Shown: one piece after another, positions 1 to 15,684 of the stretch
How the letters are laid out: every line of letters starts with the position of its first letter
How positions within the stretch are numbered: position 1 is the first letter of the stretch
DNA from: Candidatus Micrarchaeota archaeon
GTDB taxonomy: Archaea; Micrarchaeota; Micrarchaeia; Micrarchaeales; CABMGC01
Assembly (NCBI GenBank): GCA_021803945.1
Contig: JAJZKW010000004.1
Span: forward strand, 310-64,309
DNA: 64,000 nucleotides
Direction of reading: 5' to 3'
Translations under genes and position numbers: made by a program
The notes under the pieces: generated by a model
Told to the model about the DNA's origin: nothing
What the model saw: the letters and a program-made list of their open reading frames with translations, nothing else
Database searches by the model: none

Positions 1-1225
1 ACCCGGGTATCTGCCACCCTACTGACTGAAGTTGCTCTGAGACATGCTTTGGGCTCTGGCCTGTCATCTCTATCCAGAAGGTGCCGAATATGACGCAGAG
101 GACAACGAGCATAAGCGTATACGTTATTATGTGCACCCACTCGGGTATGTAGGTTATGCCGCCCCATGGCATATAGAGCGGGCTTGACGCGGTAAGCAGG
201 TATGATACGTATGGACCGTATCCCCCTATCCCGTACGGAGCCGAGTAAGGAAGAGGGAAGTTGGGAGATATAAGATAAAGCAGGCCGCCGACAAGGGTCG
301 TAGACGTGCCTGTGCCAGTGGACTGCTTCTGGTAAAAGGCTATGAAATGGGCTACGTTTGCGAAGGATCCTCCGGCGCCTGCAAGAAACGAGAACCAGAC
401 AGTCATGGATATTATCAGGGATGTAGCAAGTATGACAGGAAGCACGCTCACGTAGAGGAACGGTATCGGCAGCCTTCCTCCTATTCCCCTCAGCTGGCTG
501 AATGCAAGAGGCAGCTCTACCTTCATGTCGTATGCATATATGCTTATCAGCATCACTATGATCGCGAAGAATAACGGGCCGAACGCCTCTATTGCGGCAG
601 GAAGCGCCCCTGCGCCTCCGGCTGCCAGGGCAGCCATGGCCTCAGGGACCAGTATGTTTACTGTTCCCCCTATGATCGAATATGCTACGCCGCCTGCGAT
701 GAAGAGATTTATCCCTGAAGTCAGGCCGTACTTCACCATGGTCTCGTCCAGGAATATGACTATTATCGCGCTTATCGTCAGCTGAAGCACGACAATACCG
801 AAGAAGCTCGGGTTGGCAAGCGGAACATACCCTGTTGAAGTGAATATTATTGACTCTATTATTGCTATGGCTATGGCCGCCATCTTCTGTATCGACTGGA
901 ACTTGCCCTTCTGCTGCGGGTCGTTCAGGTCTATCTTTATGAGCCCTGTGCCCTGTATCAGCTGGAGGACTATGCTGGATAGGACGATTGGACCTATGCC
1001 TACGGTGATTAGTGTGCCTGTCCTTGCGGCAAAGATTATGTTGATCAGCTGAAGCACTGGCTGCTTAAGTATGGTTATGTTGACTCCAAGCGCAGGGGTG
1101 CTGAACATTGCGAAGTAGATTATCATTATGGCTGCGGTCCACTTTAGCTTGTCCTTGAATGAGAGCGGCTTGGCTGGCTTCTTTATCTGAGGTATGAGAT
1201 TCCCTATAGTGTCCATTAGCCCCAT
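1..1225 (-). CDS. secY: Preprotein translocase SecY, 3'-truncated by window edge (about 408 N-terminal codons present)
   Basis: Own translation of the minus strand from the ATG at 1225-1223 gives MGLMDTIGNLIPQIKKPAKPLSFKDKLKWTAAIMIIYF...ARTGTLITVGIGPIVLSSIVLQLIQGTGLIKIDL... This is a multi-TM pattern with the GIxPxxxxxIxxQL signature of SecY/Sec61alpha. The frame stays open to position 1, so it is absent from the ORF track. Plus-strand ORFs 347-1052 are its antisense shadows. Confidence 0.85.
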   Translation of the reverse strand, partial: MGLMDTIGNLIPQIKKPAKPLSFKDKLKWTAAIMIIYFAMFSTPALGVNITILKQPVLQLINIIFAARTGTLITVGIGPIVLSSIVLQLIQGTGLIKIDLNDPQQKGKFQSIQKMAAIAIAIIESIIFTSTGYVPLANPSFFGIVVLQLTISAIIVIFLDETMVKYGLTSGINLFIAGGVAYSIIGGTVNILVPEAMAALAAGGAGALPAAIEAFGPLFFAIIVMLISIYAYDMKVELPLAFSQLRGIGGRLPIPFLYVSVLPVILATSLIISMTVWFSFLAGAGGSFANVAHFIAFYQKQSTGTGTSTTLVGGLLYLISPNFPLPYSAPYGIGGYGPYVSYLLTASSPLYMPWGGITYIPEWVHIITYTLMLVVLCVIFGTFWIEMTGQSPKHVSEQLQSVGWQIPG

Positions 1226-2206
1226 TTAATCCCTTTTTCTCCAGATCCCTATCACGGATGTATAGCTTTTGTCCTTGTTCGTAATGAAGTCGATATGCGT
1301 CTTCATCCCCGCAGACAGCGCAAACCCTGAAAGCAGCGCTGCGGGCACTGCGACGAAAGCCTGCATTGAATTATAGCTCTCGTATCGCAATTTTATAATG
1401 CTTTTGATTCCTCTCCGCTCGACCTTGGCGTCCTTGGCTCCGAAGTAGTTGGCTATGTTGGAGACGACTGAAGAGATGTGGGCGTTTGGCGAGATAGAGC
1501 CGAGCTTCTCCCCGGCCATGACCATAACCTTGAGTATCTGCTCTGAAATAGCCGAATCTGTAAGCGGCAGGTATGCCAGTATCCTGTAGTATTCCTCGCT
1601 CTGCTTTTTGTAGCAGCCTTCTTTGAGCGCATAGGCTATTGAATATGCCGCGTCATCTATGCCACAGCCCCGGAAAGTCTGCTTTGATGAGAGCGGCTCT
1701 GATATGAACTGGCATTCCGAGGAGCCGTTGTATATGCACCTTTTTTCTTCCGTGCATATCTTGGTCCCGGTATAGGTAGATAGGTATCCAGATATTACTC
1801 CGGACTCGTAGATGTGTATGTTGTGGTGTATCTGGGGAGGTCGGTATTCCTGATGTGGCTTTGAGGTGATTATGACCTTTTTTTCCGAAGGATAATACAA
1901 GGAGTCGTGGAGGCCGATGTTGTCCAGCACAGAGGTAAAGCCCTTTTCAGTGCCTGTCTTTAGAGTCATTGCCCTGCCTACAGAGAACCCGAACCCGTAT
2001 CCGAGCTCCGACATGCTCGGGGTCATGCTGTATATCAGGTTCTCGATGTCCGTGCCATTGGAGGCCTTTGCACCCTGCCTTATCACCATGTCTATCAGGA
2101 GGTCTTCGATGTCGGGGTTCGATGCGCCGGGCTTTGCAGTTTTAGCCCTTCCTTTTACTGCCGCCCTGTAGCCTTTGGCCTTTATCCTTGGCTTTTTCTT
2201 CTGCAT
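1226..2206 (-). CDS. V4R-domain protein (two V4R-like halves) with a basic N-terminal tail; function unknown
   Basis: YESGVISGYLSTYTGTKICTEEKRCIYNGSSECQFISEP matches the Cys-containing V4R (4-vinyl-reductase-type ligand-binding) pattern. The second half, LRYESYNS...PAALLSGFALSAG..., resembles V4R without the Cys. The stop (1226-1228) abuts the secY start (1225). Confidence 0.5.
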   Translation of the reverse strand: MQKKKPRIKAKGYRAAVKGRAKTAKPGASNPDIEDLLIDMVIRQGAKASNGTDIENLIYSMTPSMSELGYGFGFSVGRAMTLKTGTEKGFTSVLDNIGLHDSLYYPSEKKVIITSKPHQEYRPPQIHHNIHIYESGVISGYLSTYTGTKICTEEKRCIYNGSSECQFISEPLSSKQTFRGCGIDDAAYSIAYALKEGCYKKQSEEYYRILAYLPLTDSAISEQILKVMVMAGEKLGSISPNAHISSVVSNIANYFGAKDAKVERRGIKSIIKLRYESYNSMQAFVAVPAALLSGFALSAGMKTHIDFITNKDKSYTSVIGIWRKRD

Positions 2207-2276
2207 GTGCCACCCTTTTCAGTGCAATAATAAATTTACGCAAAGACATATATTATCTCTTCAATCCTTATTTAGC

Positions 2277-3839
2277 ATGGACTTTTTAGGGCTTGTGCTG
2301 ATGCTGCTTGTAGACACGTCGGCATCGTGGGTCAGGATGTTCATAGCCTTAGGAGCGTCCGTTGCAATAAGCATATTTGTTGGAATATATGCAGCGACAT
2401 CGCCCATAGGGGAGCGTATAATAATACCTGTGGTTGATGTGCTGCAGACAATCCCCATACTCGCATTCTTCCCTTTTGCCATATTCGTTTTTGTGGCAGT
2501 GCTTCCGGGATACATCGGGATAAACGCCGCTGTGATATTTTTGATCATAACGAGCATGATATGGAACATAATATTCGGGGTTTATGAGGCGGTAAAGACA
2601 ATCCCGAACGAATTTATTGAGCTTGCGGGCATCTATCACTTCGACTTCTGGAGCAAGCTGAGGAGGATATACCTGCCTGCGAGCATGCCCAGGATAGTGG
2701 AACAGTCCATACTCTCATGGGCGATAGGGCTTTTCTACCTGGTTACCAGCGAAATATTCTCAACTGGGAACGCGAGCTATAAGGTCACATACGGGATAGG
2801 CAGCGCGCTTCCTGGCCTGGCAGCGCAGGGAATAGTTCCGTACATCACTGCAATTATAGTATTCGTAGCCTTTGTGATAGCGACAAGGTTCCTCTTCTTC
2901 AGGCCGTGGGAAAACTATGCCACTAGGTACATGAGAGGCAGCGGAGCAGGAAAAGGCAGGCTAGACTTTCCTAGGTACGAAAAGATGGCGCTTGACTGGA
3001 TAGGACAGAAGATTCCGAGGAATCGCGCCGTGTTTGACAGGGAAGGGTTCAGCGTGGGCGCAGTCAGGCGCACGCGGCGGGTTCAGGCCGCAGGCTCGGT
3101 TGCGGCGGGAGGAGGGAGGCTCTATCCCGCTATTGCGGTCGTTATCGCGTTCCTGGCAGGATACGCAATAATGTCGAACAGCACATTGAGAGGATACGAG
3201 ATGACAGTGCTGCCTGCCCTGGCCGCATCGTTCGCTAGGGTCTGGGCGGCTTTTGTGATAATGCTGGCGATAGCGATCCCTGCCTGCATCTATCTCATTT
3301 TTGTGGCAAAAAGAAGCTCGAACTACATGGTATTTTTCCAGATAGTGGCGTCTATACCGGCTACAATATTGCTGCCTGCAATAGTGCTCGAGGTGCCGCA
3401 CGGCGAACCTGTCGCTTTTGCGGTGTTCATACTCAGTGGGATATGGTATGTGATATTTGGCATCATGGCAAGCGCAAGGACGCTCCAGAACAGCGTGTTT
3501 GAAGTCAGGAAGATGTTTGGGGTGACTGGTAAGAACGCTTGGAAGAGCATATACCTGAAGGCGATACTTCCAGGCCTGATAACCGGCTCTGTTACTGGAA
3601 TCGCGGCGGAGTGGAACGCCAGCATAGTCGCAGAATACTACACCTCCGGAGGCATATCAGGTACTACTGTCATAAGCAGCGTTGGAACAGGGATAGGGAA
3701 GCTGCTTGACACTGCAATAGCAAGCGGAGGCCTTGAACTTATGGCTATAGCCCTTTTAAACCTAGTCGTTATGATAATCCTGATAGATACTTTCGTATGG
3801 AAAAGGTATTACAAGAAGATAGCAAAGATGTATAGTTGA
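2277..3839 (+). CDS. ABC transporter permease, fused double BPD-type domain (NitT/TauT nitrate/sulfonate/bicarbonate-like)
   Basis: About 12 TM segments in two similar halves. Each half has the permease EAA-like loop (VYEAVKTIPNEFIELAGIY... and MASARTLQNSVFEVRKMFG...). The start was moved to the ATG at 2277 because TATA-like CATATATTAT (2247-2256) lies inside the track ORF and 2175-2206 overlaps the divergent gene. Confidence 0.75.
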   Translation: MDFLGLVLMLLVDTSASWVRMFIALGASVAISIFVGIYAATSPIGERIIIPVVDVLQTIPILAFFPFAIFVFVAVLPGYIGINAAVIFLIITSMIWNIIFGVYEAVKTIPNEFIELAGIYHFDFWSKLRRIYLPASMPRIVEQSILSWAIGLFYLVTSEIFSTGNASYKVTYGIGSALPGLAAQGIVPYITAIIVFVAFVIATRFLFFRPWENYATRYMRGSGAGKGRLDFPRYEKMALDWIGQKIPRNRAVFDREGFSVGAVRRTRRVQAAGSVAAGGGRLYPAIAVVIAFLAGYAIMSNSTLRGYEMTVLPALAASFARVWAAFVIMLAIAIPACIYLIFVAKRSSNYMVFFQIVASIPATILLPAIVLEVPHGEPVAFAVFILSGIWYVIFGIMASARTLQNSVFEVRKMFGVTGKNAWKSIYLKAILPGLITGSVTGIAAEWNASIVAEYYTSGGISGTTVISSVGTGIGKLLDTAIASGGLELMAIALLNLVVMIILIDTFVWKRYYKKIAKMYS

Positions 3840-3843
3840 TTTT

Positions 3844-4590
3844 ATGATTATGATGTCTGTCGAGAATGTTTCGTTTGTGTTCAAGAACAGCAATCTTGAG
3901 ATAATGGATGATGTATCCTTTTCTGTTAACAAAGGCGAATTCGTGTCTATAATAGGGCCATCCGGATGCGGCAAGAGCACGTTGCTCAGGATAATGGCCG
4001 GGCTCATAGAGCCGAGCTCTGGGCGCGTTGTGTTCATGAAAAAGGAGATACACAGCCCGAACAGCAAGATCTCGTTCGTATTCCAGGACTTCGCTCTGCT
4101 TCCGTGGCTCACGAACCTTGAAAACGTGAAGCTCGGGCTGTCGTTCTCAAGGATAAGCGAAGCGGAGAAGAACAAGAAGGCTTCTGAGATACTTGAGAGG
4201 TTCGCCCTGGGCGGCTTTGAGGACCACTATCCGAACGTGCTCAGCGGAGGCATGAAGCAGAGGGTAGGAATTGCGAGGGCTATAGCATCTGAGCCGCAAG
4301 TACTGCTCATGGACGAGCCATTCAGCTCGCTTGACGAGCTCACTGCAAATACCTTGAGGTCGGATATAATACAGATGCTTGAGAACAAGAACATATCCGT
4401 CAATTCGGTGATCATGGTCACCCATAATGTTGAGGAGGCGGTTGAGCTGTCTGACAAGATAGTCGTCCTGTCCGACAAGCCGTCTCGCGTGAAGAAGATA
4501 ATAAAAATACGCTCCGGCAGGCCGAGGAACAGGAAGTCCGAACAATTCCTGGAGTTGATAGACGAGATATACGCGGTGCTTGCGCAGTAG
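3844..4590 (+). CDS. ABC transporter ATP-binding protein (NitT/TauT family, SsuB/TauB-like)
   Basis: Walker A GPSGCGKST, Q-loop, ABC signature LSGGMKQRVGIARA, Walker B LLLMDEPFSSLD and H-loop VTHN. Lies 4 nt downstream of the permease. Confidence 0.9.
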   Translation: MIMMSVENVSFVFKNSNLEIMDDVSFSVNKGEFVSIIGPSGCGKSTLLRIMAGLIEPSSGRVVFMKKEIHSPNSKISFVFQDFALLPWLTNLENVKLGLSFSRISEAEKNKKASEILERFALGGFEDHYPNVLSGGMKQRVGIARAIASEPQVLLMDEPFSSLDELTANTLRSDIIQMLENKNISVNSVIMVTHNVEEAVELSDKIVVLSDKPSRVKKIIKIRSGRPRNRKSEQFLELIDEIYAVLAQ

Positions 4591-4608
4591 GCTGTGGGCG
4601 GAGCTTTT

Positions 4609-5082
4609 CTAGGCCTTTTTCCATGTATCTTCTTCTACGTTGTATCTCAGAAGCCCCGCTCTGACCCCCCAGCGAATCAGGAGCTTCTTAAGAAGCGCTT
4701 CGTTTGTCAGCTCTTCCCCGTGAACTACTATCGACCTGCTCTTCAACTTCGAGAAGAGCTCCTGTGATGGGATTTCCTTGTTTCCGAGTATCTTTACAGT
4801 GCTCTTGAACGGTTCTACGTTGACAAGCCCGGCTTTTATTGACTTTGAAAAATTTGAAAATGTCAGCTGCGCGCCCTTTTCTGTGAGCCTTAGCTCTGAC
4901 TCGTCAACATTGACGAAGCCTAGTAGTTTGCATGCCTCTATGAGGGGCAGGAGGTCGTCTATATCCTCTTCTGACTCTTCGGCCAGCTCTGACATCTCCA
5001 TATGCCCGTTGTTCTGCTTGACCAGGCTTATGATGCCGCGGACCCTGCTTATTCCTGTGTTTAAAGGGAAAAGGTCATCCAT
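4609..5082 (-). CDS. AAA-associated-domain protein (stand-alone version of the C-terminal domain found on NitT/TauT ABC ATPases)
   Basis: MDDLFPLNTGISRVRGIISLVKQNNGHMEMSELAEESEEDIDDLLPLIEACKLLGFVNVDESELRLTEKG... is the pattern I recognise from the ABC-ATPase-associated domain. The start is set at internal Met156 (ATG complement 5082-5080). The upstream 155 codons of the track ORF are low-complexity and run through the divergent promoter. Confidence 0.5.
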   Translation of the reverse strand: MDDLFPLNTGISRVRGIISLVKQNNGHMEMSELAEESEEDIDDLLPLIEACKLLGFVNVDESELRLTEKGAQLTFSNFSKSIKAGLVNVEPFKSTVKILGNKEIPSQELFSKLKSRSIVVHGEELTNEALLKKLLIRWGVRAGLLRYNVEEDTWKKA

Positions 5083-5236
5083 GCTCTCTATTTGGATAAT
5101 AAAGCTTTTAAGCGTGTGTCCTAACGACAGTTTGGGGTTTCGGGGCCTTGCATGCCGCAGGGCTTTGGCTTGGCAGGAAGGAAATGCAGGATACGGGAAC
5201 TTATATTTAATACGAACTCCTATTTTAACTTGACGG

Positions 5237-5273
5237 TCTGGTTTTGTCTGCAGATTAAATTTAAATAACCAGA
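5237..5273 (+). promoter_or_regulatory. TATA-like ATTAAATTTAAATA (5254-5267) bracketed by the 7-bp inverted repeat TCTGGTT/AACCAGA
   Basis: Read directly. The TATA centre is about 21 nt upstream of ATG 5281 (leaderless-type spacing). Confidence 0.4.
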
Positions 5274-5280
5274 ACAGGTT

Positions 5281-8043
5281 ATGGATATATCGTGGGTGAC
5301 ATTTATGGACAACAAAGCGGAGCTTGGGAATGGTGAATTTAGAATATTTACTATATCTGAGATTGGCGGCGGAACCAGATATATGTTTGGGGATGGCCTC
5401 ATAGGCCTTGCTCAGATCTTTAAAAGTATGTCTGAAAATGAAAAGCCGGACATGTTCGTGATAAGCGGAGGTGTGCTTCCAGAGATCCCTACAAAGGGCG
5501 GACCGCGGAATGACGACAGATTGCGTGTGCTTATTGATGGTGTTCAAGACTTTTCAGGAGCAGCGGCAGTAGTAGAGCCTCACATGGAAAGACTCTTCTC
5601 CGTACTTCCTACAACAACTGAGATTGTTTATGTAATGGGAAGCTCTGACAGGATCAATAAAGAAAGCATAAAGGATTATTATAATTTATTATATTCTAAG
5701 GTAAAGGAGACTATAAAGAAAAATGGTGAGTTAAACCTTTTTACACTTAGCGTAAAGGAAATAAAGACAGATATTAACTCAAGAGAAGAAATGCTCAAAG
5801 CAACCAGAGAGGGAATAGTGCAATTTGAGGCACAGCTTGCTTCTGCCAATAATCAGGAAGAGAGGGATCGTGTTTTTATTGATCTGGGAAAAGCTAAGGC
5901 CAGTTTCAAACTGAACAAGGAGAGAATTCATGAGCTTGAGGAAAAGAGAGTGCTTTTTGGGAAACTCGAGGAAATCATAAAAAACGCTGTTGGGCCTGAT
6001 GACTGGCAAAAACTCATAGATAGTACTAGAAAGCAGTTATCGGCAGTTACAGCAAAACGGAAGAAACTGAATAAAGTTAAGAAAGAGAAAGAAACTGCGG
6101 AGCAAGCCTCAAAGAGAATGGCAAAGGATGCTCAATTGCAGAGTGAGGCAAAAACCCTGAGCAATAAGCTAAAGCAGCTCCAACATAGGCTCAGGGAAAG
6201 CATAGACAGGAATGTGACTGATGACAGAGACTCACGGCTAGGGAGCATAAACAGACACAATCATAGGACACCAACGCCAAAGGATGCGACTGATATAATT
6301 GACAGGATAGTCGAGATAGAATATATGACGCATATAAGAGATGCGTTTGGGAGGAAGAGGGAAATAAGGATACAGGAAGATACCACTGACATATATCAGA
6401 AGAGAGTAGGATCGTTTAATTTTAGTGTGGTGTTGAGAAATGTGCTTGCGCAGGAGAGTAGGACAGCATACAATATAGGAAGCAATGATAACGTTCCTGT
6501 AAAGTTCTACGAAGAATTTCAAGACGGCGGAAGGCGAAAGGAGATTGAAAGTACTGGGCTGACTGTGGTAGTTGAGGGAGGTCATGGACATACTTCGTTT
6601 GCAATGGATCTGTTGCAAGATCAAGACCCTGGAATTATGGCGGTGCTTGTAAAGGGTCCTTTCCTTGATAAGAAAGTGGTGAGTAAACTCTTTACTAAAG
6701 GGGTGATAACAACAATAACTAGTGGGTCACGACAAAAAATTGATGTGTGCGCGAGTGAAATTACAATACACGGTGATGGAGGATTGGAACATAGAATAAT
6801 AGGAGCAGAGGTATTCCGTGATGAACGGATTAAAAGTGATAAAAAAGAAGCGGAGAAACTTGAAGAAATAGTTACTAAAGTACGTGAAGGGACTGGAGTA
6901 CCAGTAGGGGGAGAGAACAGCGAACTTTCAAGAGCAATTGCAAAAAGTTTTAGAATTAGTGAGCTTCCAGATACCATCACGCCGTTTTTGGATGAACAAC
7001 TGGTGAAGGCGCTTGTGCCTTATTTAGATGCTGCAGATCCACAGAAACTACGAGAAGTCACAATGGCACTTTTTAATGATATTCATATGGGGCATTATAC
7101 AGACCTTGATCTTTTAGAAGCGTCTGTGGCGGATGCGATCAAAAAGAAACCAGATGTGCTTGTATTTGGAGGCGATAACCTAGACGGGAAGTTGAGAGGT
7201 CAGCATGATGAAGCAAGACCAGAGAATATACTTTACAATATGGTAATGTATGAAAAATGGTTAAAAGCACAAGGATTTGATGAACTAAATGTGCTTAGAA
7301 TTTTAGAAGACAGGAGAAAAAAGCAGGACATTAATGAAATACTAAATGTAGACGCCCAAGCAAAAGCGTTGATAGACAGGATGGCACCTTTGATAATAGA
7401 TGTTATACGGCGAGGAGGCAATATTGTGCTGGTGTCAGGCAACCATTATAATGGGTCACTACCAAACGATTCGACAAGAGATGAAGCCACTGTCTTAGAT
7501 GGTGCTGTAAAGCTTTTTCTTATGGGTCAAGAGGGTCTTCCACAGGACTGGGAAGACCATATAAAAACAGTTAGGGGAGGTAAATCGGTGGCAGAGCCAT
7601 TCAAACTAGAGGTAGCGCCTGCAGAAGGCGAAGAGGAGCAGATTAGATATAGTACAGATATTAGTATTAGGCATGCACTTGCAGCTAGTTTTAGGGGAAT
7701 GGTTGGGCTTGTAAATAGGAAAAGGAGTAAGGATGCATTGACAGTATTTGGCGATAAACACTCAATAAGAGGAGTATTAACTGGGGAACAATTAATAGTG
7801 GAGGGGCAGAGCATGCAGAGGACAGGTACCAGCCCGTATGTAAAAACACTAGGCGTTCCTACAACAATAGAGGATCCGCTTGCGGGTTACACTAGTTTGA
7901 AGTTGAAGATAAAAGGAGAGAATATTGTTGAAAGCGTTCAGCAGCCTGTAGGCAGGGCACAACTTGTGAGGAGAGATTGGGATACGCTGTGGGCGCGGTT
8001 CCAAAAAGAAACAAGCACAATAAAAGTAAAGGCAATGGCTTAG
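5281..8043 (+). CDS. 920-aa tandem calcineurin-like metallophosphoesterase: N-terminal degenerate copy with a coiled-coil insertion, plus a C-terminal copy with intact motifs
   Basis: The C-terminal half carries motifs in canonical order: FNDIHMGH (D600/H602), VFGGDNLDG (D632), VSGNHYN (N721/H722) and FGDKHS (~H827). The N-terminal half has the same spacing with catalytic residues replaced: ISEIGGG, VISGGVLPE, VMGSSDR, EGGHGH (H435/H437). About aa 150-330 are heptad-like and K/E/Q/L-rich (coiled coil). G+C is clearly lower than in the neighbours. Confidence 0.6.
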   Translation: MDISWVTFMDNKAELGNGEFRIFTISEIGGGTRYMFGDGLIGLAQIFKSMSENEKPDMFVISGGVLPEIPTKGGPRNDDRLRVLIDGVQDFSGAAAVVEPHMERLFSVLPTTTEIVYVMGSSDRINKESIKDYYNLLYSKVKETIKKNGELNLFTLSVKEIKTDINSREEMLKATREGIVQFEAQLASANNQEERDRVFIDLGKAKASFKLNKERIHELEEKRVLFGKLEEIIKNAVGPDDWQKLIDSTRKQLSAVTAKRKKLNKVKKEKETAEQASKRMAKDAQLQSEAKTLSNKLKQLQHRLRESIDRNVTDDRDSRLGSINRHNHRTPTPKDATDIIDRIVEIEYMTHIRDAFGRKREIRIQEDTTDIYQKRVGSFNFSVVLRNVLAQESRTAYNIGSNDNVPVKFYEEFQDGGRRKEIESTGLTVVVEGGHGHTSFAMDLLQDQDPGIMAVLVKGPFLDKKVVSKLFTKGVITTITSGSRQKIDVCASEITIHGDGGLEHRIIGAEVFRDERIKSDKKEAEKLEEIVTKVREGTGVPVGGENSELSRAIAKSFRISELPDTITPFLDEQLVKALVPYLDAADPQKLREVTMALFNDIHMGHYTDLDLLEASVADAIKKKPDVLVFGGDNLDGKLRGQHDEARPENILYNMVMYEKWLKAQGFDELNVLRILEDRRKKQDINEILNVDAQAKALIDRMAPLIIDVIRRGGNIVLVSGNHYNGSLPNDSTRDEATVLDGAVKLFLMGQEGLPQDWEDHIKTVRGGKSVAEPFKLEVAPAEGEEEQIRYSTDISIRHALAASFRGMVGLVNRKRSKDALTVFGDKHSIRGVLTGEQLIVEGQSMQRTGTSPYVKTLGVPTTIEDPLAGYTSLKLKIKGENIVESVQQPVGRAQLVRRDWDTLWARFQKETSTIKVKAMA

Positions 8044-8048
8044 CACGT

Positions 8049-8558
8049 TTATTTCTTCGACTTCCTTGAAGAGATGGGTGTGATCTTTCCTAGATAGTAG
8101 TATACAAGAATTACATTAAGGGTTATCATTGATGATAAAATCCATATCTGGTACGAATTTATGGCTGACGCTATTCCTGCGGCCTGAAGCACGCTGACCC
8201 CGAAGAAAAGCAGAACAGACTCGAGGAGAGGGAAGGCGCAGCCGCAGCTTGCAACCAGGCCGCCGAGGGACGGAATGAGTATCCCTTCTATGCTGCCTAA
8301 TTCACCCATCCTTCTCGAAGCGATGGAATGCCATATGGCATACAGGCTTATCGAAAAGATTGCGCCTGAAGTGATGACAAGCGCGTATATTATGTACATC
8401 GGTATTAGGACAAGGAAGATTCCGTGGTTGTTGACTTCTATCAAGTATCTGAACAGGTAGAAAAATAATATTGATGCTGCAGCCGCGATCATCATATATG
8501 CAGGCTTGCTGAATATCCGTATTGCGGTGTCCAGCCTTGTGCCTGTTCTATGTTTCAT
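8049..8558 (-). CDS. Small integral membrane protein (4 predicted TM) with an intramembrane SCGCAFP motif
   Basis: Four hydrophobic stretches. The only cysteines form C-G-C followed by Pro inside TM3. Starts 7 nt downstream of the DUF929 gene, so it is probably co-transcribed. Confidence 0.5.
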   Translation of the reverse strand: MKHRTGTRLDTAIRIFSKPAYMMIAAAASILFFYLFRYLIEVNNHGIFLVLIPMYIIYALVITSGAIFSISLYAIWHSIASRRMGELGSIEGILIPSLGGLVASCGCAFPLLESVLLFFGVSVLQAAGIASAINSYQIWILSSMITLNVILVYYYLGKITPISSRKSKK

Positions 8559-8565
8559 TTTCAGC

Positions 8566-9603
8566 TCACTTCAATAATGCCTCCATTGAGATTATTGACG
8601 GGAGAGTGCAGACCTTGGCAGTGTTGTTTATTGACTTGCATATTGCCGCAACGTAGAGGTCGGCTGCAGCATACTCGCTGAAGGCGAACTGGTCATTGGG
8701 AGCAGCAAGCTGCGAAAGCACCTGCGCGTGCGTCATGTATGTCAATGCTACAGAGTTACCTGAAGGGGTGGAATTACCGAATACCGCTGCGTCTGCTCCG
8801 CTGAACTGGTAGTTGCCCCATATCGTATATGGAGTGCCCTGGAACGCCGTTGTCTTGTTGCTGCTCAGGTTAAGTATGTATCCAATGGCGTTTGTGTATG
8901 TCTGGTTCTGGTACTTCCTTACGTTGCTCACTATTACGGGCATCGGATTAAGGGCGAAGCCGCCAGTTATCGGATTTAGGTCCTCTATGGAGATGAACGA
9001 GATTATGTTGCTTGTATAGTAATTGCCTATGGCCGTTCCTGATTTGTTGTAGTCCACGGCAGTCCAATATAGGGTCGGTACGTCTGAGTCGCCAAAAGAG
9101 GAATATCCATTATAAAGTCTTGAGAAGCTGCCGAACCTTGAAAGCGCCAAGGCCATCGCCCACCTGTTCTCTCCGCAGAATATGCATGTTATTGAACCAA
9201 GATAGACTACTGCGGGTTTACCGTTCACTGAGAAGGGGTGCACCATGTTGGCGTCCTGGGGGAAGACTGGATTTGCGATCGACCCGTTCAAGTACATCGC
9301 CCCTGCAGTCTCGAAAAAGGCATTGGGAGCGGAGTTTATGACTGAAAGCGCCGTGCTGTTGAGGGGCGTGTCAATGCCTGCAAGCGTATGGCCAAATGTG
9401 GAGTTGGACTGGTTGTTGGTTGAAGATGAATTTGATGCATGCAACCCTGCTATGTCGCTGGATAGGAGTAATGCAATTGCAATTGAAGAGAATATTGCTA
9501 TTATGCCAAGCATCAATGCAGCTGATGATATTATCCTGAGGCTGCGGAGGGTCCGTTCATACTTCTGTACTGTGTCTTTTTTTGATAGTTTTGCTGAAGG
9601 CAT
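8566..9603 (-). CDS. DUF929-family extracytoplasmic thioredoxin-like protein with CxxC, N-terminal membrane anchor
   Basis: N-terminal TM (IISSAALMLGIIAIFSSIAIALLL), a Ser/Asn-rich linker, then VVYLGSITCIFCGENRWAMALALSRFGSF, which is the DUF929 signature as I remember it. There are many NxS/T sequons. Confidence 0.6.
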   Translation of the reverse strand: MPSAKLSKKDTVQKYERTLRSLRIISSAALMLGIIAIFSSIAIALLLSSDIAGLHASNSSSTNNQSNSTFGHTLAGIDTPLNSTALSVINSAPNAFFETAGAMYLNGSIANPVFPQDANMVHPFSVNGKPAVVYLGSITCIFCGENRWAMALALSRFGSFSRLYNGYSSFGDSDVPTLYWTAVDYNKSGTAIGNYYTSNIISFISIEDLNPITGGFALNPMPVIVSNVRKYQNQTYTNAIGYILNLSSNKTTAFQGTPYTIWGNYQFSGADAAVFGNSTPSGNSVALTYMTHAQVLSQLAAPNDQFAFSEYAAADLYVAAICKSINNTAKVCTLPSIISMEALLK

Positions 9604-9755
9604 TGGAATACACCATTGATAATCACCATATTATTAGCATTGTTATTTAAATCCGTTATGCATTCTGCACGCATGTTTGGGGGTTTTGCCTGGCCTTAAA
9701 AAGATGTCGGATAGAGTTGGCTGGCTTATTTAAATTTGGAGGGTAGAGTATTATC

Positions 9756-10529
9756 ATGTCATTAGCTGAAGATGCGCCGATCAGTATGGAGGGAATAATG
9801 AGGCTTGTAGACCACACTTTACTGAAGCCTTATGCTGACATGTCCCAGATTGATGCCTTTGTCAAAGAGGCTAGCGTGCTAGGAGTGTATTCCGTCTGCA
9901 TCCAGCCTTTGTACGCGGAGCGTGTGAGAGAGTTGATAAACAGCAATGGTTACGGATTGAGGCTTGCAGTAGTGGTAGACTTTCCGCACGGGTCACTGGA
10001 CACAGGGGAGAGGATATCAGTTATAAGGTCGCTAAAAGGGATTGCAGATGAGATAGACGCAGTCATGCAGGTTGGCCTTGCAAAATCTGGAAGGTTTGAG
10101 GACATCAGGGAAGATTTGGGCATGCTTGCGGAAGAAGCGCATGGGGGGAAGATGAAGCTTAAGGTGATAACCGAGGATGCTTATCTCATAAGGGCTGAGA
10201 AGGAAAAGGCGTATGAAGCGGTCTTTGGATCTGGAGCGGATTTCATAAAGACAAGCACTGGATTTGCGGAGCCTAAGTTTTCAGAATCAATAGGAAATAG
10301 GATGACCGGAGCGGACCTTAACTATGTACGGCTTATGGCTGAGGTTTCGGAGCGAATGGGTAAACAGGATGTTGGAATAAAGGTGGCTGGAGGTATAAAG
10401 ACCTTGGCGCAGGTCATGGATTTCCTGAAGGTTTCTGGAAGAAAGGCGGATCCAGATCATTTCAGGGTTGGAGCAAGCTCATCCAAGGCAATATACGAAG
10501 AACTAAAACTTAGGCATCTGCCGGGGTGA
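9756..10529 (+). CDS. deoC: Deoxyribose-phosphate aldolase
   Basis: LVDHTLLKP, the Schiff-base region ADFIKTSTGF and KVAGGIKT are typical class I DeoC motifs. TATA-like CTTATTTAAATTT lies at 9725-9737. Confidence 0.85.
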   Translation: MSLAEDAPISMEGIMRLVDHTLLKPYADMSQIDAFVKEASVLGVYSVCIQPLYAERVRELINSNGYGLRLAVVVDFPHGSLDTGERISVIRSLKGIADEIDAVMQVGLAKSGRFEDIREDLGMLAEEAHGGKMKLKVITEDAYLIRAEKEKAYEAVFGSGADFIKTSTGFAEPKFSESIGNRMTGADLNYVRLMAEVSERMGKQDVGIKVAGGIKTLAQVMDFLKVSGRKADPDHFRVGASSSKAIYEELKLRHLPG

Positions 10530-10595
10530 TTCCGAGTAGCAGAGCCTGGTTGCAGGCTTGATATACTTTCTTGTCCATTGATAATTGGTGTTTTT

Positions 10596-11939
10596 ATGTG
10601 GCTTGATTCTGTCAGGGAAGATGACCCTGAGACATTTGGGTTGATAGTGGAAGAGCTCGGCAGGCAGAGGAATGGGCTTGAGATGATCCCTTCTGAGAAT
10701 TTCACAAGCATTGCCGTGATGCAGGCTGTTGGCTCTGTGCTGACAAATAAGTATTCTGAAGGATATCCAAACAGGAGGTATTACGGAGGCAACGAATTCA
10801 TAGACCGCGTTGAAACGCTGGCTGTGAACAGGGCAAAGGCGCTGTTTGGTGTTCCGCATGCGAACGTGCAGCCTTATTCAGGCTCTCCGGCAAACCTTGC
10901 AGTTTACCTTGCATTGTGCAAGCCCGGAGATGTGATATGCGGCCAGGGGCTTACCGACGGCGGCCATCTTACGCACGGATGGAAGACCAGCGTGACTGGG
11001 CAGATATTCAAGAGCGTGCAGTACGGGGTTAACGAAGAAGGATACATAGACATTGACAGCATGAGGAAGATCGTGCTTGAGAACAGGCCTAAGCTCATAT
11101 GGGTGGGATCTACAGCCTACACCAGGCCATTCCCGTTCAGGGAGACTTATGAAATCGCAGGCGAGGTTGGGGCTTATGTTGCGGCTGACATATCTCACAT
11201 ATCGGGGCTTGTGGCAGGAGGAGTGCATGAGAGCCCGGTTAATTATGCGCATATAGTAACTACAACGACACACAAGACGCTGCGCGGACCCAGGGGCGCT
11301 ATTATAATGGTAACTCACAAGGGCATTGAGAAGGACCATGACCTGCCGGACAAGATCGACAAGACCGTCTTCCCTGGTATGCAGGGTGGGCCGCACGACA
11401 ATACCACTGCCGGAATCGCAGTAGCATTGCTTGAGGCTTCAAGGCCTGAATTCGGAGAATATGCAAGGCAGGTAGTGAAGAATGCGCAGGCTTTGGCCGA
11501 AGGCCTGAACAAAAGGGGGATGAAGCTCGTTACCGGAGGCACTGACAACCACATGTTGCTTGTGGACTTGACCAAGTTCGGAAAGGGAAAGGGGGTGTTT
11601 GCGCAGTATGCCTTAGATGCCGTAGGGATAACAGTTAACAAGAACACTGTGCCAAAGGACCAGAGCTCGCCGTTCTATCCCAGCGGGATAAGGCTGGGTA
11701 CGCCTGCACTGACTACAAGAGGCATGAAGGAGGAGGAGATGGAGGTCATTGCAGGGTTCATAGCCGAGGTAATAAATGAGGTGAAAGGCAATGAGCTTCC
11801 TGAAGACAAGGAGTCCAGGGTAGCATACCTCAAGGAGTTCAGGGAGGGGATAGGGAAAAACAGCAAGCTTGCAGAGATAAGGGAATCGGTGGTCAGACTG
11901 AGCAGCAGGTTCCCACTGTATCCAGAACTCACTGCCTAG
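10596..11939 (+). CDS. glyA: Serine hydroxymethyltransferase
   Basis: LEMIPSENFTS, YSEGYPNRRYYGG and the PLP-lysine region VTTTTHKTLRGPRG. First ATG at 10596; the track start 10578 is a TTG. Confidence 0.95.
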   Translation: MWLDSVREDDPETFGLIVEELGRQRNGLEMIPSENFTSIAVMQAVGSVLTNKYSEGYPNRRYYGGNEFIDRVETLAVNRAKALFGVPHANVQPYSGSPANLAVYLALCKPGDVICGQGLTDGGHLTHGWKTSVTGQIFKSVQYGVNEEGYIDIDSMRKIVLENRPKLIWVGSTAYTRPFPFRETYEIAGEVGAYVAADISHISGLVAGGVHESPVNYAHIVTTTTHKTLRGPRGAIIMVTHKGIEKDHDLPDKIDKTVFPGMQGGPHDNTTAGIAVALLEASRPEFGEYARQVVKNAQALAEGLNKRGMKLVTGGTDNHMLLVDLTKFGKGKGVFAQYALDAVGITVNKNTVPKDQSSPFYPSGIRLGTPALTTRGMKEEEMEVIAGFIAEVINEVKGNELPEDKESRVAYLKEFREGIGKNSKLAEIRESVVRLSSRFPLYPELTA

Positions 11940-13668
11940 TCTCGAACTTCTTCTGCGCGTCCCTCTTCTTTTGGGCTATCCTTATCTCGGACTCAAGCCT
12001 ACCCATCTGCTTTGGCTCCATGTTCATAAAATTCATGTATTTTGTAACAGATGGAAGGACTTTGGAAGCGGCCAGATACACTTTCTGCGCCAGATCCCTG
12101 TAGTCTGGGTGGCCCCCCATCCCTGTCCTTAGCTCGCAGAAATGGAACATCTGCCTTGCATTCAATGAATAGTACCACCTTATGTTGAACCCGAATGTGA
12201 CAACATACTGGGCCTGGTACGGCATGGCCTCGCTTATCCTGTTGTAGAGGCTTATTACCTGTTCCATCTTGCTTTTGTAATCGTCCTCTATGCCTATGTC
12301 CTTGAACTGGTCCCTCATGTTGTATCCGTGCTTCACGGTGAACATCTGCCTCTCCTGCGTGCCCACCCTGTGCCTCTGCAGATCCCTGTATATGCCTATC
12401 CTGCTGCAGAAATCTAAGGTAAGGGAGATATTTTCGAAGGCGCGCCCGGGCTTGTGCCTGCGGTTTTTCCTGACGCACACGTAACTGGATATTACCGACT
12501 CCCTTTCTGCCTGCGACATAGAATCCGCGATGGCGATCGACTGGGATAAGGAAAAGCCCTTGCCGAACCTGTATACTATGAACGAGGCCAGTTTTATGCT
12601 TGCGGCCATGTCAGGATCTTTGCTTCCCATGCCGGTATAATCTATGAGCCTGACCAACTCCCTGTCATTATCAGGCTGTATCCTTTCTGAAAGCCCTGCG
12701 ACTGCTAGGATCGAGTTGTCCCTTGAGTTGCTTATGAACTCGCGGCCGTAAGCGCCGTGGCTGTCGTTTATCCTCTTCAGGAGCGATGGGACCACTTTTG
12801 TCAGCTCCCTGTGCATCCTGCTACCTATGAAGTTGCATTCTGACAGCGGCGAAGCGAGCAGTTTGGTTATGGCGGATTCATAAGACCTCGCGTTCATGCT
12901 GATGCCGACGTGGGTGAGAAGAGACATTGGAAGATAGTCCCTCATGAAATCCAGGGCGTTTGCCTTCGTTGCGTTGTCGTAGGATTTCTGGAGGTCATTG
13001 ATTGTGACTCCAAGACGCTCTTCCATTGAGCTGCTCATTTCCTGCGAGGTTACTGTAGTGCTGCGCACGCTGAACTTCTGCTCCTCGAACGGATTGCTCT
13101 CTCTTATGAAGGCCGTCATCTTATCCATGTTCTTGGCGTAGGAGTCGAATAGGCTGCGCATGAGCTCCAGGTATTCGTCCCCGAACCTCGAGGAGAGTAT
13201 GTCCCTGTCCTTGTAGAACATGTAATCTCCGTTCTTGAGCTTCATGTCAAAAGGGACGTACCTTGTCGACTTCTCTATATAAGAGCCGAACCTCGAGTCC
13301 TCTATCTCCTTTGCTGCTATGTTTGATATGAACTCGCAGGACATGGGCATGCCTCCTGCCATTTCCTGTATTGAATCATCGCCGTAGTCCACAAGCCACG
13401 ACTCGAAGAACTCCTTTCCTCTAGACTTGTTAGGCAAGAACTCCTTCAGGAACAGCCTGCGCCCTGTGAGCGAGGTCCTGCTATACCTTGAAAGCAGTGC
13501 TCCGGACTGCTCTGCGGAGAGGTCTTCACCGAGTTTCCACGCATATATGTTGTCATCAGCATTTGTAACAACCTTTGACAGTGACGCCTCTTCACTATCA
13601 ATGAATTCCTCTACAAGGATGCAGTCGTCCTTGGCATCTGTCCTGATGAAACTTTCAATCATAAGCAT
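11929..13668 (-). CDS. thyX: Flavin-dependent thymidylate synthase, double-length (pseudo-dimeric) ThyX-like
   Basis: The N-half GDDSIQEMAGG...FISNIAAKEIEDSRFGSYIEKSTRYV resembles the GHxSvxEH...RHRxxSxxxxSxRY region, with RHR lost but S..S.RY kept. The C-half IYRDLQRHRVGTQERQ keeps RHR but loses the serines. The C-terminal ARQMFHFCELRTGMGGHPDYRDLAQKV resembles the R..hF..LR...AQxEIR region. Confidence 0.6.
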   Translation of the reverse strand: MLMIESFIRTDAKDDCILVEEFIDSEEASLSKVVTNADDNIYAWKLGEDLSAEQSGALLSRYSRTSLTGRRLFLKEFLPNKSRGKEFFESWLVDYGDDSIQEMAGGMPMSCEFISNIAAKEIEDSRFGSYIEKSTRYVPFDMKLKNGDYMFYKDRDILSSRFGDEYLELMRSLFDSYAKNMDKMTAFIRESNPFEEQKFSVRSTTVTSQEMSSSMEERLGVTINDLQKSYDNATKANALDFMRDYLPMSLLTHVGISMNARSYESAITKLLASPLSECNFIGSRMHRELTKVVPSLLKRINDSHGAYGREFISNSRDNSILAVAGLSERIQPDNDRELVRLIDYTGMGSKDPDMAASIKLASFIVYRFGKGFSLSQSIAIADSMSQAERESVISSYVCVRKNRRHKPGRAFENISLTLDFCSRIGIYRDLQRHRVGTQERQMFTVKHGYNMRDQFKDIGIEDDYKSKMEQVISLYNRISEAMPYQAQYVVTFGFNIRWYYSLNARQMFHFCELRTGMGGHPDYRDLAQKVYLAASKVLPSVTKYMNFMNMEPKQMGRLESEIRIAQKKRDAQKKFETRQ

Positions 13669-13839
13669 CAGCCTAGATATCTTATCTCTCCAGTTAATTA
13701 TTAATATGTATTAAGGGATGAGACTGCACAAATATATTGGCTTACTAAGCACATGCAGAAGCAATTATATCCACATTTTCTTATTAGCGGAGCAGGGTGA
13801 TTGGATTATTTTGTTTGCATTAGATAATTTATCTTATGT

Positions 13840-14577
13840 CTACCTTCTTGCAGCTTCTGCAAATTGTCTGAAGGTTAGATTGCCTGTTTTTATACCTGTT
13901 TGGCTGTCGTGAGATTCTACTAATACCGCTGGGGAGGCGTACGGCTGATAATCACACACATCTACACATGACACTAGGTCGGCGTAAAAATAACGAAGAA
14001 CCGGGCTGACTTTGTCTTCCTTGTCGGATTTAGTTAATTTCCTTGTGTGGGCCTTGTCTCCTGTACCTATAAGCACAAGCCCTGTTATGGGGTCTATTAT
14101 CCCTTCAGAATTATCTAGTGGCGCTGCATTGGGCAAGAATACAGGAGGACTTATTGACGTTACGAATGCAAATGGCCCTGATATTATTATTTGTGGGTGT
14201 TCAATGAAGATTAGTCCGCCGGTATTTCCTATGGCTGCTTCTGGTATCATTTGGTATGGTAACGTTAACTTTACCCCCTCTTGATTTGGAAAGGAGTCAT
14301 AAATATTATATCCTTTCCTGAATTCTTTGCCTGAAGCAAGGTATGCTACAATGGAACATGATCTGATCCATCCATTTCCATTCCAAAGGAAATTTGCCAG
14401 TTGTGCCCGGGTTGATTCATCTGTTACTATCTTCTCAAGCTCCGATGATGTCGGCAACCTTAGCTTTGATGGGAGTGCATCTCTTATCATGTCCAAATAA
14501 TATTGGTTGCGTTTCAGAACTGTAAGTTCGCCTACTGGAGAAGGTATTCTTATGGCTTGTGCTTCTTTTATGGTCAT
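13840..14577 (-). CDS. Hypothetical protein (245 aa), no recognisable motif, in a low-GC patch
   Basis: Long ORF with plausible non-repetitive composition and AT-rich flanks on both sides. I recognise no family. Confidence 0.45.
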   Translation of the reverse strand: MTIKEAQAIRIPSPVGELTVLKRNQYYLDMIRDALPSKLRLPTSSELEKIVTDESTRAQLANFLWNGNGWIRSCSIVAYLASGKEFRKGYNIYDSFPNQEGVKLTLPYQMIPEAAIGNTGGLIFIEHPQIIISGPFAFVTSISPPVFLPNAAPLDNSEGIIDPITGLVLIGTGDKAHTRKLTKSDKEDKVSPVLRYFYADLVSCVDVCDYQPYASPAVLVESHDSQTGIKTGNLTFRQFAEAARR

Positions 14578-14705
14578 ATTATCATACTGGAGTCTAATTG
14601 GTCAGATATATAAAGTTAACTTTTAGAATCAATTCGGTAGAGACGGATGTTGTTTGCAACTTTTATGAAGACAGATATTGAGATATGCAATTAAACAACT
14701 ATATA

Positions 14706-14717
14706 TTGAATATTCAA
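14706..14717. promoter_or_regulatory. Perfect 12-bp palindrome TTGAATATTCAA just upstream of the chaperone-operon TATA (candidate operator)
   Basis: Read directly; it lies 24 nt upstream of the TATA. Confidence 0.4.
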
Positions 14718-14740
14718 CTTTTTATTGAAAAAAAGCAAGT

Positions 14741-14750
14741 ATTTATATAT
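14741..14750 (+). promoter_or_regulatory. TATA box ATTTATATAT for the wHTH-grpE-dnaK-dnaJ operon
   Basis: Centre lies 27 nt upstream of ATG 14773. The same 10-mer occurs at the tfe promoter (45351-45360). Confidence 0.5.
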
Positions 14751-14772
14751 TAGTTTGTATATAGCCTTGGAT

Positions 14773-15201
14773 ATGACGAGCGGAGAACGGATAGTGCTAA
14801 AGGCTGTCAACAAGCCCTCGAAGACCGACCTGAAGGACCTTGCTGACTGGTTCTGCAAGGTATTCGACCTGAACAGCAGGGACGACTGGCTTGAGCCTGC
14901 TATATTCAGGGAGATAGTCAGCAACAACATGAGCGGCAAGGGAGTGACCAGCAAGAGCCTGAACAAGAAGCTTGACGTGCCTAGGACTACGGTGATATAC
15001 CACCTTAACAGGTTCATATATTCAGGGCTTGTGATAAGGAGGGGGACAAGGTATTACCTAAGGTCGGAGGATATGAAGAGCACGCTTGAGGAGCTGCAGG
15101 CAGATATGGAGAGGGAGTTCGGAAGGCTTATGGAATTTGCGGAGAAGATGGATGAGATGTTCGAATCTGATGTTTATGGGAGAAGAAGACAAAAGGAGTG
15201 A
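14773..15201 (+). CDS. Winged-helix DNA-binding protein heading the grpE-dnaK-dnaJ operon (candidate heat-shock regulator)
   Basis: KSLNKKLDVPRTTVIYHLNRFIYSGLVIRRGTRYYL is an HTH plus wing pattern, followed by a C-terminal helical acidic region. The ATG at 14773 lies 27 nt after the TATA ATTTATATAT (14741-14750). The 3' end overlaps the grpE start by 26 nt. Confidence 0.5.
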   Translation: MTSGERIVLKAVNKPSKTDLKDLADWFCKVFDLNSRDDWLEPAIFREIVSNNMSGKGVTSKSLNKKLDVPRTTVIYHLNRFIYSGLVIRRGTRYYLRSEDMKSTLEELQADMEREFGRLMEFAEKMDEMFESDVYGRRRQKE

Positions 15202-15682
15202 GAAGGTAGGCGCATCTGAAGAGGGAGCTAAGTCAGAGTCCAGCGAGTCGGACAACCTCAAGGACAGAGTGTTGAGGATGGCCGCGGAGTTTGATAACTA
15301 CAAGAAGCGCGTGGCAAAGGAGATAGAAGGATCGAAGGAGGCGGGGAAGGCAGACATAATAACAAAGCTGCTCCCGACAGTGGACGAATTCGAGCTTGCG
15401 CTCGACTCGTTCGGGAAGGACGATGAGCATAGGAAGGGCATTGCGCTGATATACTCGAACCTGATGGGCACGCTTAAGGGATGCGGCCTCAGGGAGATAG
15501 AATCGCGGGGAAAGTTCGACCCGTACAAGCATGAGATAGTATTGACAAGGGAGAGCAAGGAGGAGGATGGAGTGATAATAGAAGTCATAAGGAAGGGATA
15601 CATGCTCAACAACATAATGCTGAGGCCGGCCTCTGTCATAGTTTCTAAGATGGAGGAAGGGAAAAAAGAGAATGGTGAATAG
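15176..15682 (+). CDS. grpE: Nucleotide exchange factor GrpE
   Basis: [17 protein letters not shown], then the C-terminal beta domain FDPYKHEIV...[18 protein letters not shown]. The start is chosen at ATG 15176 (MGEEDKRSE); the upstream part of the track ORF overlaps the regulator. Confidence 0.85.
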
Positions 15683-15684
15683 AT

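Follow-up and report, generated by a model that had tools for sequence, protein, structure and literature searches.

A putative single-chain metallophosphoesterase pseudo-dimer encoded by a probably replaced allele in a Candidatus Micrarchaeota genome

What does the long AT-rich gene near the start of a Candidatus Micrarchaeota contig encode, and why does it differ so strongly from its surroundings? The window analysed here is a stretch of 64,000 nt (assembly GCA_021803945.1, contig JAJZKW010000004.1, positions 310 to 64,309 of the forward strand), in which an open reading frame (ORF) at 5281..8043 encodes a metallophosphoesterase (MPE) homologue. The original prediction, made from the sequence alone, regarded it as a solitary, recently acquired gene in a low-GC island, encoding a fused Mre11/SbcD-like pseudo-dimer that could serve in defence or DNA processing. 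We consider it fairly probable that the protein belongs to a DPANN-specific family of cytoplasmic, single-chain MPE pseudo-dimers of ~850-1000 aa and, jointly, that the window genome carries a replaced allele of the gene.

The ORF (plus strand, 920 aa) is present in the window, and residues are numbered along it (start 5281) throughout. Related loci are referred to by L-numbers; L001, L006, L013 and L016 share the gene order of the window. The product can be divided into the following parts.

5329..5640, plus strand: first half of the N-terminal unit (N-unit), aa 17-120, beta1-alpha-beta2-alpha-beta3 of a putative degenerate MPE fold (hhalign, model and column frequencies)
5641..6345, plus strand: all-helical insertion, the arm, aa 121-355, ~235 aa (DSSP of the model)
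6346..6810, plus strand: remainder of the N-unit, aa 356-510, the beta-rich half of its putative degenerate fold (alignment and model)
6811..7044, plus strand: helical linker between the units, aa 511-588 (model secondary structure)
7045..7959, plus strand: C-terminal unit (C-unit), aa 589-893, intact calcineurin-like MPE domain (Pfam, conservation and Foldseek)
7192-7410, plus strand: helical sub-insertion of the C-unit, aa 638-710, containing the invariant Q693

The C-unit is a member of the calcineurin-like MPE superfamily, with all five motifs that were looked for in place. Conservation was counted in an alignment of 44 family members. Motif I (D-x-H) is invariant, with D600 and H602 in 44/44, and motif II (G-D-x-x-D/E) has G631 in 43/44, D632 in 43/44 (E in the remaining one) and E or D at position 635 in 41/44. 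In motif III, G720 and H722 are found in all 44 members and N721 is Asn in 38 and Gln in 6; the next residue is Y/F instead of D/E, followed by the conserved N724 and D734-E735. Motif IV (H798) is present in 44/44, as is H827 of motif V, G824-(H25/D18)-x-H827. Further invariant residues are Q693, E735, G766 and G869. The sequence conservation shows a complete and strictly conserved binuclear metal site, with D600, H602, D632, N721, H722, H798, D825 and H827 as the proposed ligands; seven of these eight positions are invariant or conservatively replaced, and position 825 alternates between His and Asp. The DxH, GDxxD and GNH motifs and the late His that had been predicted are all found, at D600/H602, D632, N721/H722 and, for the late His, H798 and H827. 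At the profile level, Pfam PF00149 (Metallophos) matches residues 596-649 of the window protein only marginally (21.6 bits against a cutoff of 21.5); within the family, PF00149 matches 19/44 members (best 1.2e-10) and PF12850 (Metallophos_2) 12/44.

An AlphaFold model built with the 44-sequence alignment has a predicted local distance difference test score (pLDDT) of 87.2 and a predicted template modelling score (pTM) of 0.86; a 5-sequence alignment gave a pLDDT of 52 only. The Foldseek search that had been suggested as a check was made with this confident model and returned MPE folds only. The PDB matches were Rv0805, PolD DP1, GpdQ, Lmo2642, the Pol epsilon B-subunit, Vps29 and Mre11, with a Foldseek probability of 1.0 for Rv0805, DP1 and GpdQ on the C-unit. 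Matches in BFVD (viral models) were dominated by DNA polymerase II small subunits and SbcD-like exonucleases. No full-length fold match was found in PDB or BFVD.

The N-unit is a different case. The sequences SEIGGG, SGG and GSSD, which had been named as its altered motifs, and GGHGH, named as the one retained, are located at residues 26-31, 62-64, 120-123 and 433-437, respectively. The DxH of motif I is replaced by E27-x-G29, the GD of motif II by G63-G64 and the GNH of motif III by G120-S-S, and GGHGH is kept at the position of motif V, in a second half that also contains a conserved DAFGR motif. At the His position of motif I, 28/44 members have G and 2/44 have H; at the D position of motif II, the counts are 24 G, 11 E and 2 D, and the N-H positions of motif III are variable. 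The N-unit is without every His ligand family-wide and, judged from these columns, is catalytically dead as a binuclear site. It also is, by its conservation, functional rather than decaying, since no other part of the protein is as well conserved (80% identity, compared to 26-40% at the C-terminus), the first half of the unit most of all, and it has its own near-invariant set (G42, P56, G63, P67, A94, R104, Y117, D123 and N126). Several of these residues stay invariant in the Woesearchaeota and Nanoarchaeota homologues.

Whether this unit descends from an MPE was examined by comparing it with the C-unit. Profile-profile alignment with hhalign places the first beta-alpha-beta of both units in register over motifs I-II only (E=1e-4 to 2.4e-5, probability 54-76%), and a relaxed alignment is collinear over five motif positions (SEIGG-NDIHM, SGG-GGD, GSS-GNH, LRN-IRH and GGHGH-GDKHS). 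In the AlphaFold model, the order of strands and helices parallels that of the C-unit, with a pLDDT of 93-97 in the first half. Another possibility might be that the N-terminal half is an unrelated alpha/beta domain and that the protein simply joins one MPE to a helical domain and a novel one. No significant similarity to the C-unit is seen in the second half of the N-unit (probability 1.4%), Pfam Metallophos matches only 1/24 spliced N-units and no PDB sequence matches the unit, all of which would fit such a fusion. It is nevertheless unlikely in view of the register of the first beta-alpha-beta with motifs I-II, the collinear motif positions, the parallel secondary structure of the model and one family member that retains GD at motif II. 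The proposal of two calcineurin-like units, an intact C-terminal and a degenerate N-terminal one, agrees with the in-register alignment and the modelled fold; that the N-unit is a degenerate copy motif for motif is partly supported by the same sequence and model data.

A helical insertion splitting the N-unit had been predicted as well, and an all-helical insertion is present, but it spans ~aa 121-355 (~235 aa) rather than ~150-330 (~180 aa). In the model it begins right after strand 3 of the N-unit, where helix 3 of an MPE would start, and consists of six helices, ~114 aa running out and ~117 aa back, with a G-P-D-D turn at aa 235-238. Its length, including the apex, varies among the family members. 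The insertion contains no Cys, the sole Cys of the protein being C490. The proposed heptad-rich coiled coil could not be confirmed: Fourier power at period 3.5 (hydrophobic periodicity) gives P=0.06-0.75 per helix and 0.17 overall, although long paired helices are predicted by the model. Library and fold matches to the arm were low-complexity helical ones only, of the JetC, Rad50, CtIP or BAR type, with non-specific BAR or three-helix-bundle matches in Foldseek.

How widespread is this architecture? A word-index search of 5.8 billion clusters returned five proteins, the named ones labelled Micrarchaeota, and the same five were obtained with the 44-sequence alignment, a search probably swamped by helical low-complexity words. 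An exhaustive profile search of 1.84 billion representatives gave 88 clusters (43 below 1e-30), almost without exception 850-1000 aa in length. Database labels of the members read only 'hypothetical protein' or 'predicted phosphodiesterase'. The family was found only in DPANN archaea (Micrarchaeota, Woesearchaeota and Nanoarchaeota), and since Woesearchaeota and Nanoarchaeota proteins have the full-length architecture (hhalign E=2.6e-41, residues 21-895), the design appears to be old within the DPANN archaea. The window protein had no match in a PDB sequence search and no real match in NCBIfam (a weak one is phosphodiesterase YaeI); no viral homologues were found, and no relevant literature came up for Micrarchaeota in connection with metallophosphoesterases, Mre11 or Rad50. 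The MPE superfamily itself is already known; what appears to be new is a dead and a live copy in one polypeptide with a long arm. As far as searched, a single-chain MPE of this kind, with the arm in the dead lobe, is undescribed in libraries and searchable literature. This bears out the claim that no described family has such an architecture, none having been found in Pfam, NCBIfam, PADLOC, PDB sequences, PDB/BFVD folds or the literature. The original prediction would have been abandoned for a well-characterised family with conserved synteny in related archaea; profile searches place the protein in no such family, and the synteny is conserved. Reduced DPANN genomes keep few genes without reason, and the family provides a well-defined, testable target with a confident model as well as a natural example of an enzyme homodimer becoming a single-chain pseudo-dimer.

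The second part of the question concerns the composition of the gene. Both 60-nt G+C counts given originally are exact (15/60 at 5641-5700 and 37/60 at 4201-4260), and windowed GC is 0.39-0.42 across 5250-7750 compared to 0.47-0.56 on both sides. GC at third codon positions (GC3) is 0.372, whereas the 37 long ORFs of the window average 0.587 (sd 0.073), and the values for the first and second positions (GC1 and GC2) are normal; the shift is therefore synonymous and not one of amino-acid composition alone. The predicted change towards GAT, AAT, TTA, AGT and AAA is also seen, with codon preferences inverted relative to the rest of the window: GAT 0.67 vs 0.35, AAT 0.70 vs 0.32, AAA 0.55 vs 0.31, AGT 0.34 vs 0.05, TTA 0.14 vs 0.04 and AGA 0.42 vs 0.13.

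Such a composition could suggest a genomic island or a recent insertion, and this was considered and rejected. In the window, the gene lies between a divergent ABC-transporter/AAA_assoc_C cluster and a small membrane protein with DUF929, followed by DeoC, SHMT and ThyX. An MPE homologue fills the same slot, with identical gene order, in L001, L006, L013 and L016. No mobility hallmark is seen: tRNA genes are absent from window positions 1-20000, no flanking direct repeats were found around the gene, and its immediate neighbours (ABC transporter, AAA_assoc_C protein and DUF929) include no integrase. The description as a 'solitary' gene has to be dropped, as its syntenic position is conserved in related Micrarchaeota, with housekeeping genes around it.

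What differs is the allele in this slot, as listed below.

5300..8090, no strand: segment of anomalous divergence and composition, the putative replaced allele (DNA identity to L001 and synonymous sites)

DNA identity between the window and L001 is 86% at 5200-5299, ~70% at 5300-6399, ~50% at 6400-8099 and 91% from 8100 onwards. It thus drops at the start codon and again near 6400, and is back to 91% at most ~50 nt past the stop codon. The flanking DNA is 82-91% identical and the neighbouring proteins 86-94%. The MPE protein of the window is only 51% identical to both syntenic orthologues, those of L001 and L006 (P0002 and P0003), which are its closest known relatives and share 76% with each other. 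Because the flanks make the window and L001 the closest pair, the gene tree contradicts the flank tree. At two- and three-fold synonymous sites of conserved residues, window-L001 identity is 58.4% in the gene and 81.0% in the flanks (p=4.4e-12), and at four-fold sites 42.7% and 56.5% (p=9e-4). Between L001 and L006, the gene tracks its flanks (76.0% vs 76.9%, p=0.77). When vertically inherited, the MPE protein evolves somewhat faster than most neighbours (76% vs 78-93%); faster protein evolution cannot saturate synonymous sites, however, which argues for a history of the window allele that is deeper than that of its surroundings. The simplest account of these sequence data would be a gene-precise allelic replacement by a deeply divergent homologue, not an insertion. 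Homologous recombination at the conserved flanks would have swapped the resident allele, from start to stop codon, for an AT3-rich one (AT-rich at third codon positions) from an unsampled relative, in a family that would otherwise be vertically inherited in a housekeeping context. The locus would resemble a low-GC island because of this exchange. Of the recent horizontal acquisition proposed originally, the foreign nature of the window allele stands, with 51% protein identity and synonymous sites near saturation; nothing appears to have been inserted.

Two other explanations of the divergence were weighed. Vertical inheritance with very fast evolution in the window lineage, under positive or relaxed selection, would agree with the fact that the closest relatives are still the two syntenic orthologues and that no donor was found. 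It is very unlikely given the near-saturation of synonymous sites in the gene and not in the flanks, the normal behaviour of the gene between L001 and L006, a divergence that starts and ends at most ~100 nt from the gene borders, and the inverted codon usage. A metagenomic chimera, i.e. an assembly artefact in which another population's allele entered the contig, seems scarcely credible. The contig probably comes from a metagenome-assembled genome, and samples of that type contain related populations side by side, but the assembly would have had to switch twice, each time precisely at a gene border. The reading frame and the start context are undisturbed, as are both flanks, and the identical protein is listed on 3 contigs from two sources. 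Allelic replacement might not be the whole story, since vertically inherited orthologues also have a lower GC3 than their neighbours (L001 10001-12697, z=-2.8; L006 9532-12231, z=-1.7; L003 10001-12727, z=-1.4), pointing to either repeated allele exchange or a codon-usage regime of the gene's own. The locus would offer a clean example, with statistical support, of gene-precise replacement of an allele in a lineage of uncultivated symbionts. It bears on the extent of recombination among DPANN populations and indicates that no insertion is needed to produce a 'low-GC island'.

A different kind of event is seen further downstream. A segment of ~945 nt (13737-14682) has no counterpart in the otherwise collinear L001, the alignment passing directly from 18394 to 18388 there. 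Within the segment lies an orphan ORF of 245 aa (13840..14577, minus strand) with a GC3 of 0.355 and no Pfam match, and local GC falls to 0.35. By sequence comparison this looks like a true lineage-specific insertion, unlike the MPE locus.

What could the protein do? It is cytoplasmic and has no recognisable partner. The C-unit would be an active phosphodiesterase, hydrolysing phosphodiester bonds. The dead N-unit would replace the second subunit of free-standing MPE dimers (Mre11, Rv0805, GpdQ) and supply a binding surface, and the helical arm might mediate oligomerisation or the capture of partners or substrates. By analogy, we tentatively favour a nucleic-acid substrate, with ATP-free exo- or endonucleolytic processing of DNA or RNA ends, as a possibility that falls short of probable, because of the DP1/SbcD-type fold neighbours, the apparently frequent DNA- and nucleotide-metabolism gene neighbours, and the arm.

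The same architecture might instead belong to a small-molecule phosphodiesterase acting on cyclic or linear nucleotides or glycerophosphodiesters, with an arm serving assembly or localisation only. The top PDB folds are indeed of this kind (Rv0805, a cyclic-nucleotide phosphodiesterase, E=1.1e-4, GpdQ and Lmo2642), the weak NCBIfam match is to YaeI, and some members match Metallophos_2. However, the PolD DP1 exonuclease matches equally well (E=1.3e-4), the BFVD matches are dominated by polymerase small subunits and SbcD-like exonucleases, small-molecule phosphodiesterases seldom have a 235-aa helical arm or a dead partner domain that is conserved, and the neighbours often seem to be DNA or nucleotide-metabolism genes. 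We rate a small-molecule substrate as a doubtful option, though a real one.

A single-gene defence or conflict nuclease was one of the functions suggested originally; the allele turnover would then reflect an arms race. The replaced allele, its atypical codon usage and the somewhat faster protein evolution are compatible with such a role. A homologue search from the 5-sequence alignment gave five Micrarchaeota loci only; other Micrarchaeota neighbours of the gene include a tRNA-splicing endonuclease, a PRC barrel protein, a dUTPase or dCMP deaminase, and thymidylate kinases. In further loci, the gene is found beside TatD, DUF929 and SecY, beside a HerA-like ATPase and an AP endonuclease, or beside an SSB-like OB protein, RNase HII and RNR. 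The ten Micrarchaeota-type neighbourhoods examined consist of housekeeping genes and are not defence islands, and the defence-island association proposed as a check is absent from the Micrarchaeota loci. PADLOC-DB gave only helical low-complexity matches (JetC at 3.6e-4; LmuB or PbeC in 1/44 each). Together with the fixed syntenic position and wide retention, which are unlike those of patchy defence genes, and the lack of viral homologues, this makes a defence module quite unlikely.

The sole conflict-like case among the loci is found in Woesearchaeota GCA_018671815.1 (L097, 4383-12115). Here, the MPE homologue and its neighbours form a cluster on one strand. An IetA-like AAA ATPase (PADLOC E=4.9e-38), a 153-aa protein and a trypsin-like protease come before the MPE, and a 170-aa protein as well as a caspase-like protein (E=1.2e-8) come after it. 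The 170-aa protein overlaps the MPE gene by 8 nt. The cluster may represent a conflict-system context and is the one locus that speaks for the defence function, although the IetA models may match generic AAA+ domains.

In its boldest form, the nucleic-acid reading would make the protein an unrecognised, ATP-independent DPANN machine, a single-chain analogue of the Mre11 dimer that substitutes for Mre11-Rad50-type end processing or acts in genetic conflict, with alleles passing between lineages by homologous replacement. We see a slim chance of this. If true, reduced DPANN genomes would have their own counterpart of the Mre11 dimer, in which one nuclease lobe is live, the other dead and the helical arm part of the same chain.

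The start and upstream region of the gene contain the following elements.

5305..8043, plus strand: probable true coding sequence, 912 aa plus stop; ATG 5305 (M9) is conserved in the orthologues and ATG 5281 is not
5294..5299, plus strand: Shine-Dalgarno-like GGGTGA, 6-11 nt before ATG 5305 and retained in L001 and L006
5254..5267, plus strand: AT-rich, TATA-like sequence ATTAAATTTAAATA, 38-51 nt before ATG 5305
5237..5273, no strand: 7-bp inverted repeat TCTGGTT/AACCAGA, arms 5237-5243 and 5267-5273, bracketing the TATA-like element

The 920 aa originally given to the protein correspond to the full ORF. Translation probably starts at ATG 5305, for a product of 912 aa, because this codon and its upstream GGGTGA are conserved, ATG 5281 is not, and the database protein P0001, 100% identical to the window protein, is also 912 aa long. 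The element ATTAAATTTAAATA is, from its sequence and position, a candidate archaeal promoter element; it is invariant across three syntenic genomes, yet this does not exceed the background level of flank identity. The divergent promoter region that separates the AAA_assoc_C and MPE genes (5195-5305) has two TATA-like AT-rich elements, at 5201-5211 and 5254-5267, and is ~86-90% identical in the three genomes, which is not above the flanking background. The inverted repeat described originally does bracket the TATA-like element, but a perfect 7-nt repeat (at least one pair) occurs in 38% of shuffles of the upstream intergenic region (0.38) and the changes in its arms among orthologues are non-compensatory. 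It was rejected as an operator, being no better than chance. The ~110 nt upstream were likewise rejected as a conserved RNA element, since the flanks of the relatives are 82-91% identical genome-wide and Rfam gave only noise.

Some further genes of the window deserve mention. At 8049-9603 (minus strand), a DUF929 protein of 345 aa is paired with a multi-pass membrane protein of 169 aa. By eye, the former has an N-terminal membrane anchor and a CxxC-type motif, CIFCGENRW. The pair lies at most 3 kb from the MPE gene in the distantly related L013, L014, L016 and L096, and from its sequence features could be a thiol-disulfide oxidoreductase pair. DUF929 was rejected as a dedicated partner of the MPE, the MPE gene being found in only 1/80 DUF929 loci; a DUF929-anchored metagenome search gave a best relative with 65% identity and no close ones. 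At 11929-13668 (minus strand), a ThyX (Thy1) homologue of 579 aa (577 aa in L001) has about twice the length of Thy1 in L003 and L005 (264-300 aa) and may be a duplicated or fused form. At 32323-34062 (minus strand), an unusually long tRNA-intron endonuclease of 580 aa has two catalytic-domain matches and an N-terminal domain match. It presumably resembles the multi-unit splicing endonuclease of ARMAN-type archaea, which we take to fit the Micrarchaeota origin.

How does the MPE protein compare to known systems? With the Mre11/SbcD dimer and its partner Rad50/SbcC it has in common an MPE fold with a binuclear site and a long helical arm attached to the nuclease module. The two MPE lobes side by side form a homodimer in Mre11/SbcD and putatively a single-chain pseudo-dimer here, where the arm is inserted inside the dead unit and there is one active site only. 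The specific Mre11/SbcD-like identity that had been suggested is not supported. The best folds are Rv0805, PolD DP1 and GpdQ, and Mre11 is a mid-ranking Foldseek match (E=0.03-0.05). Pfam Mre11_DNA_bind and NCBIfam SbcD or Mre11 do not match the window protein even at E<=10, and no Rad50/SbcC ATPase partner was found next to the gene, either in the window or at eleven related loci. Lacking a capping domain, a Rad50 partner and a family profile match, the protein falls outside the Mre11/SbcD family. Nor is its arm of the Rad50/SMC type, because it has no ATPase heads (no SMC_N or AAA_23 match in the protein) and no zinc hook, the apex being G-P-D-D in an insertion free of Cys; an NCBIfam Rad50 match (E=0.44) covers the helical region only.

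PolD DP1 and the eukaryotic DNA polymerase B-subunits also have the MPE fold. DP1 is an active 3'-5' exonuclease, and in the Pol epsilon B-subunit (E=5.7e-3) an inactivated MPE is kept as a scaffold, a precedent for a dead MPE in protein-protein contacts. In contrast to these, the window protein lacks an OB domain, has neither DP2 nor a polymerase partner encoded close by, and combines dead and live versions in one polypeptide. The class III cyclic-nucleotide phosphodiesterases Rv0805 and CpdA, together with GpdQ, are the best structural matches of the C-unit (E=1e-4 to 1e-3, target-relative template modelling scores of 0.47-0.52). They act as dimers, but are single-domain proteins of ~250-300 aa with no arm and no degenerate partner domain, and identity is 10-12%. 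Vps29 of the retromer (E=0.015-0.05) is a non-catalytic MPE scaffold analogous to the N-unit, although it is eukaryotic, single-domain and part of a multi-protein coat, with no evidence of homology beyond the superfamily. By analogy, the nearest functional counterparts might be the Mre11 dimer for the two lobes and the arm, and the polymerase B-subunits and Vps29 for the dead MPE as a scaffold.

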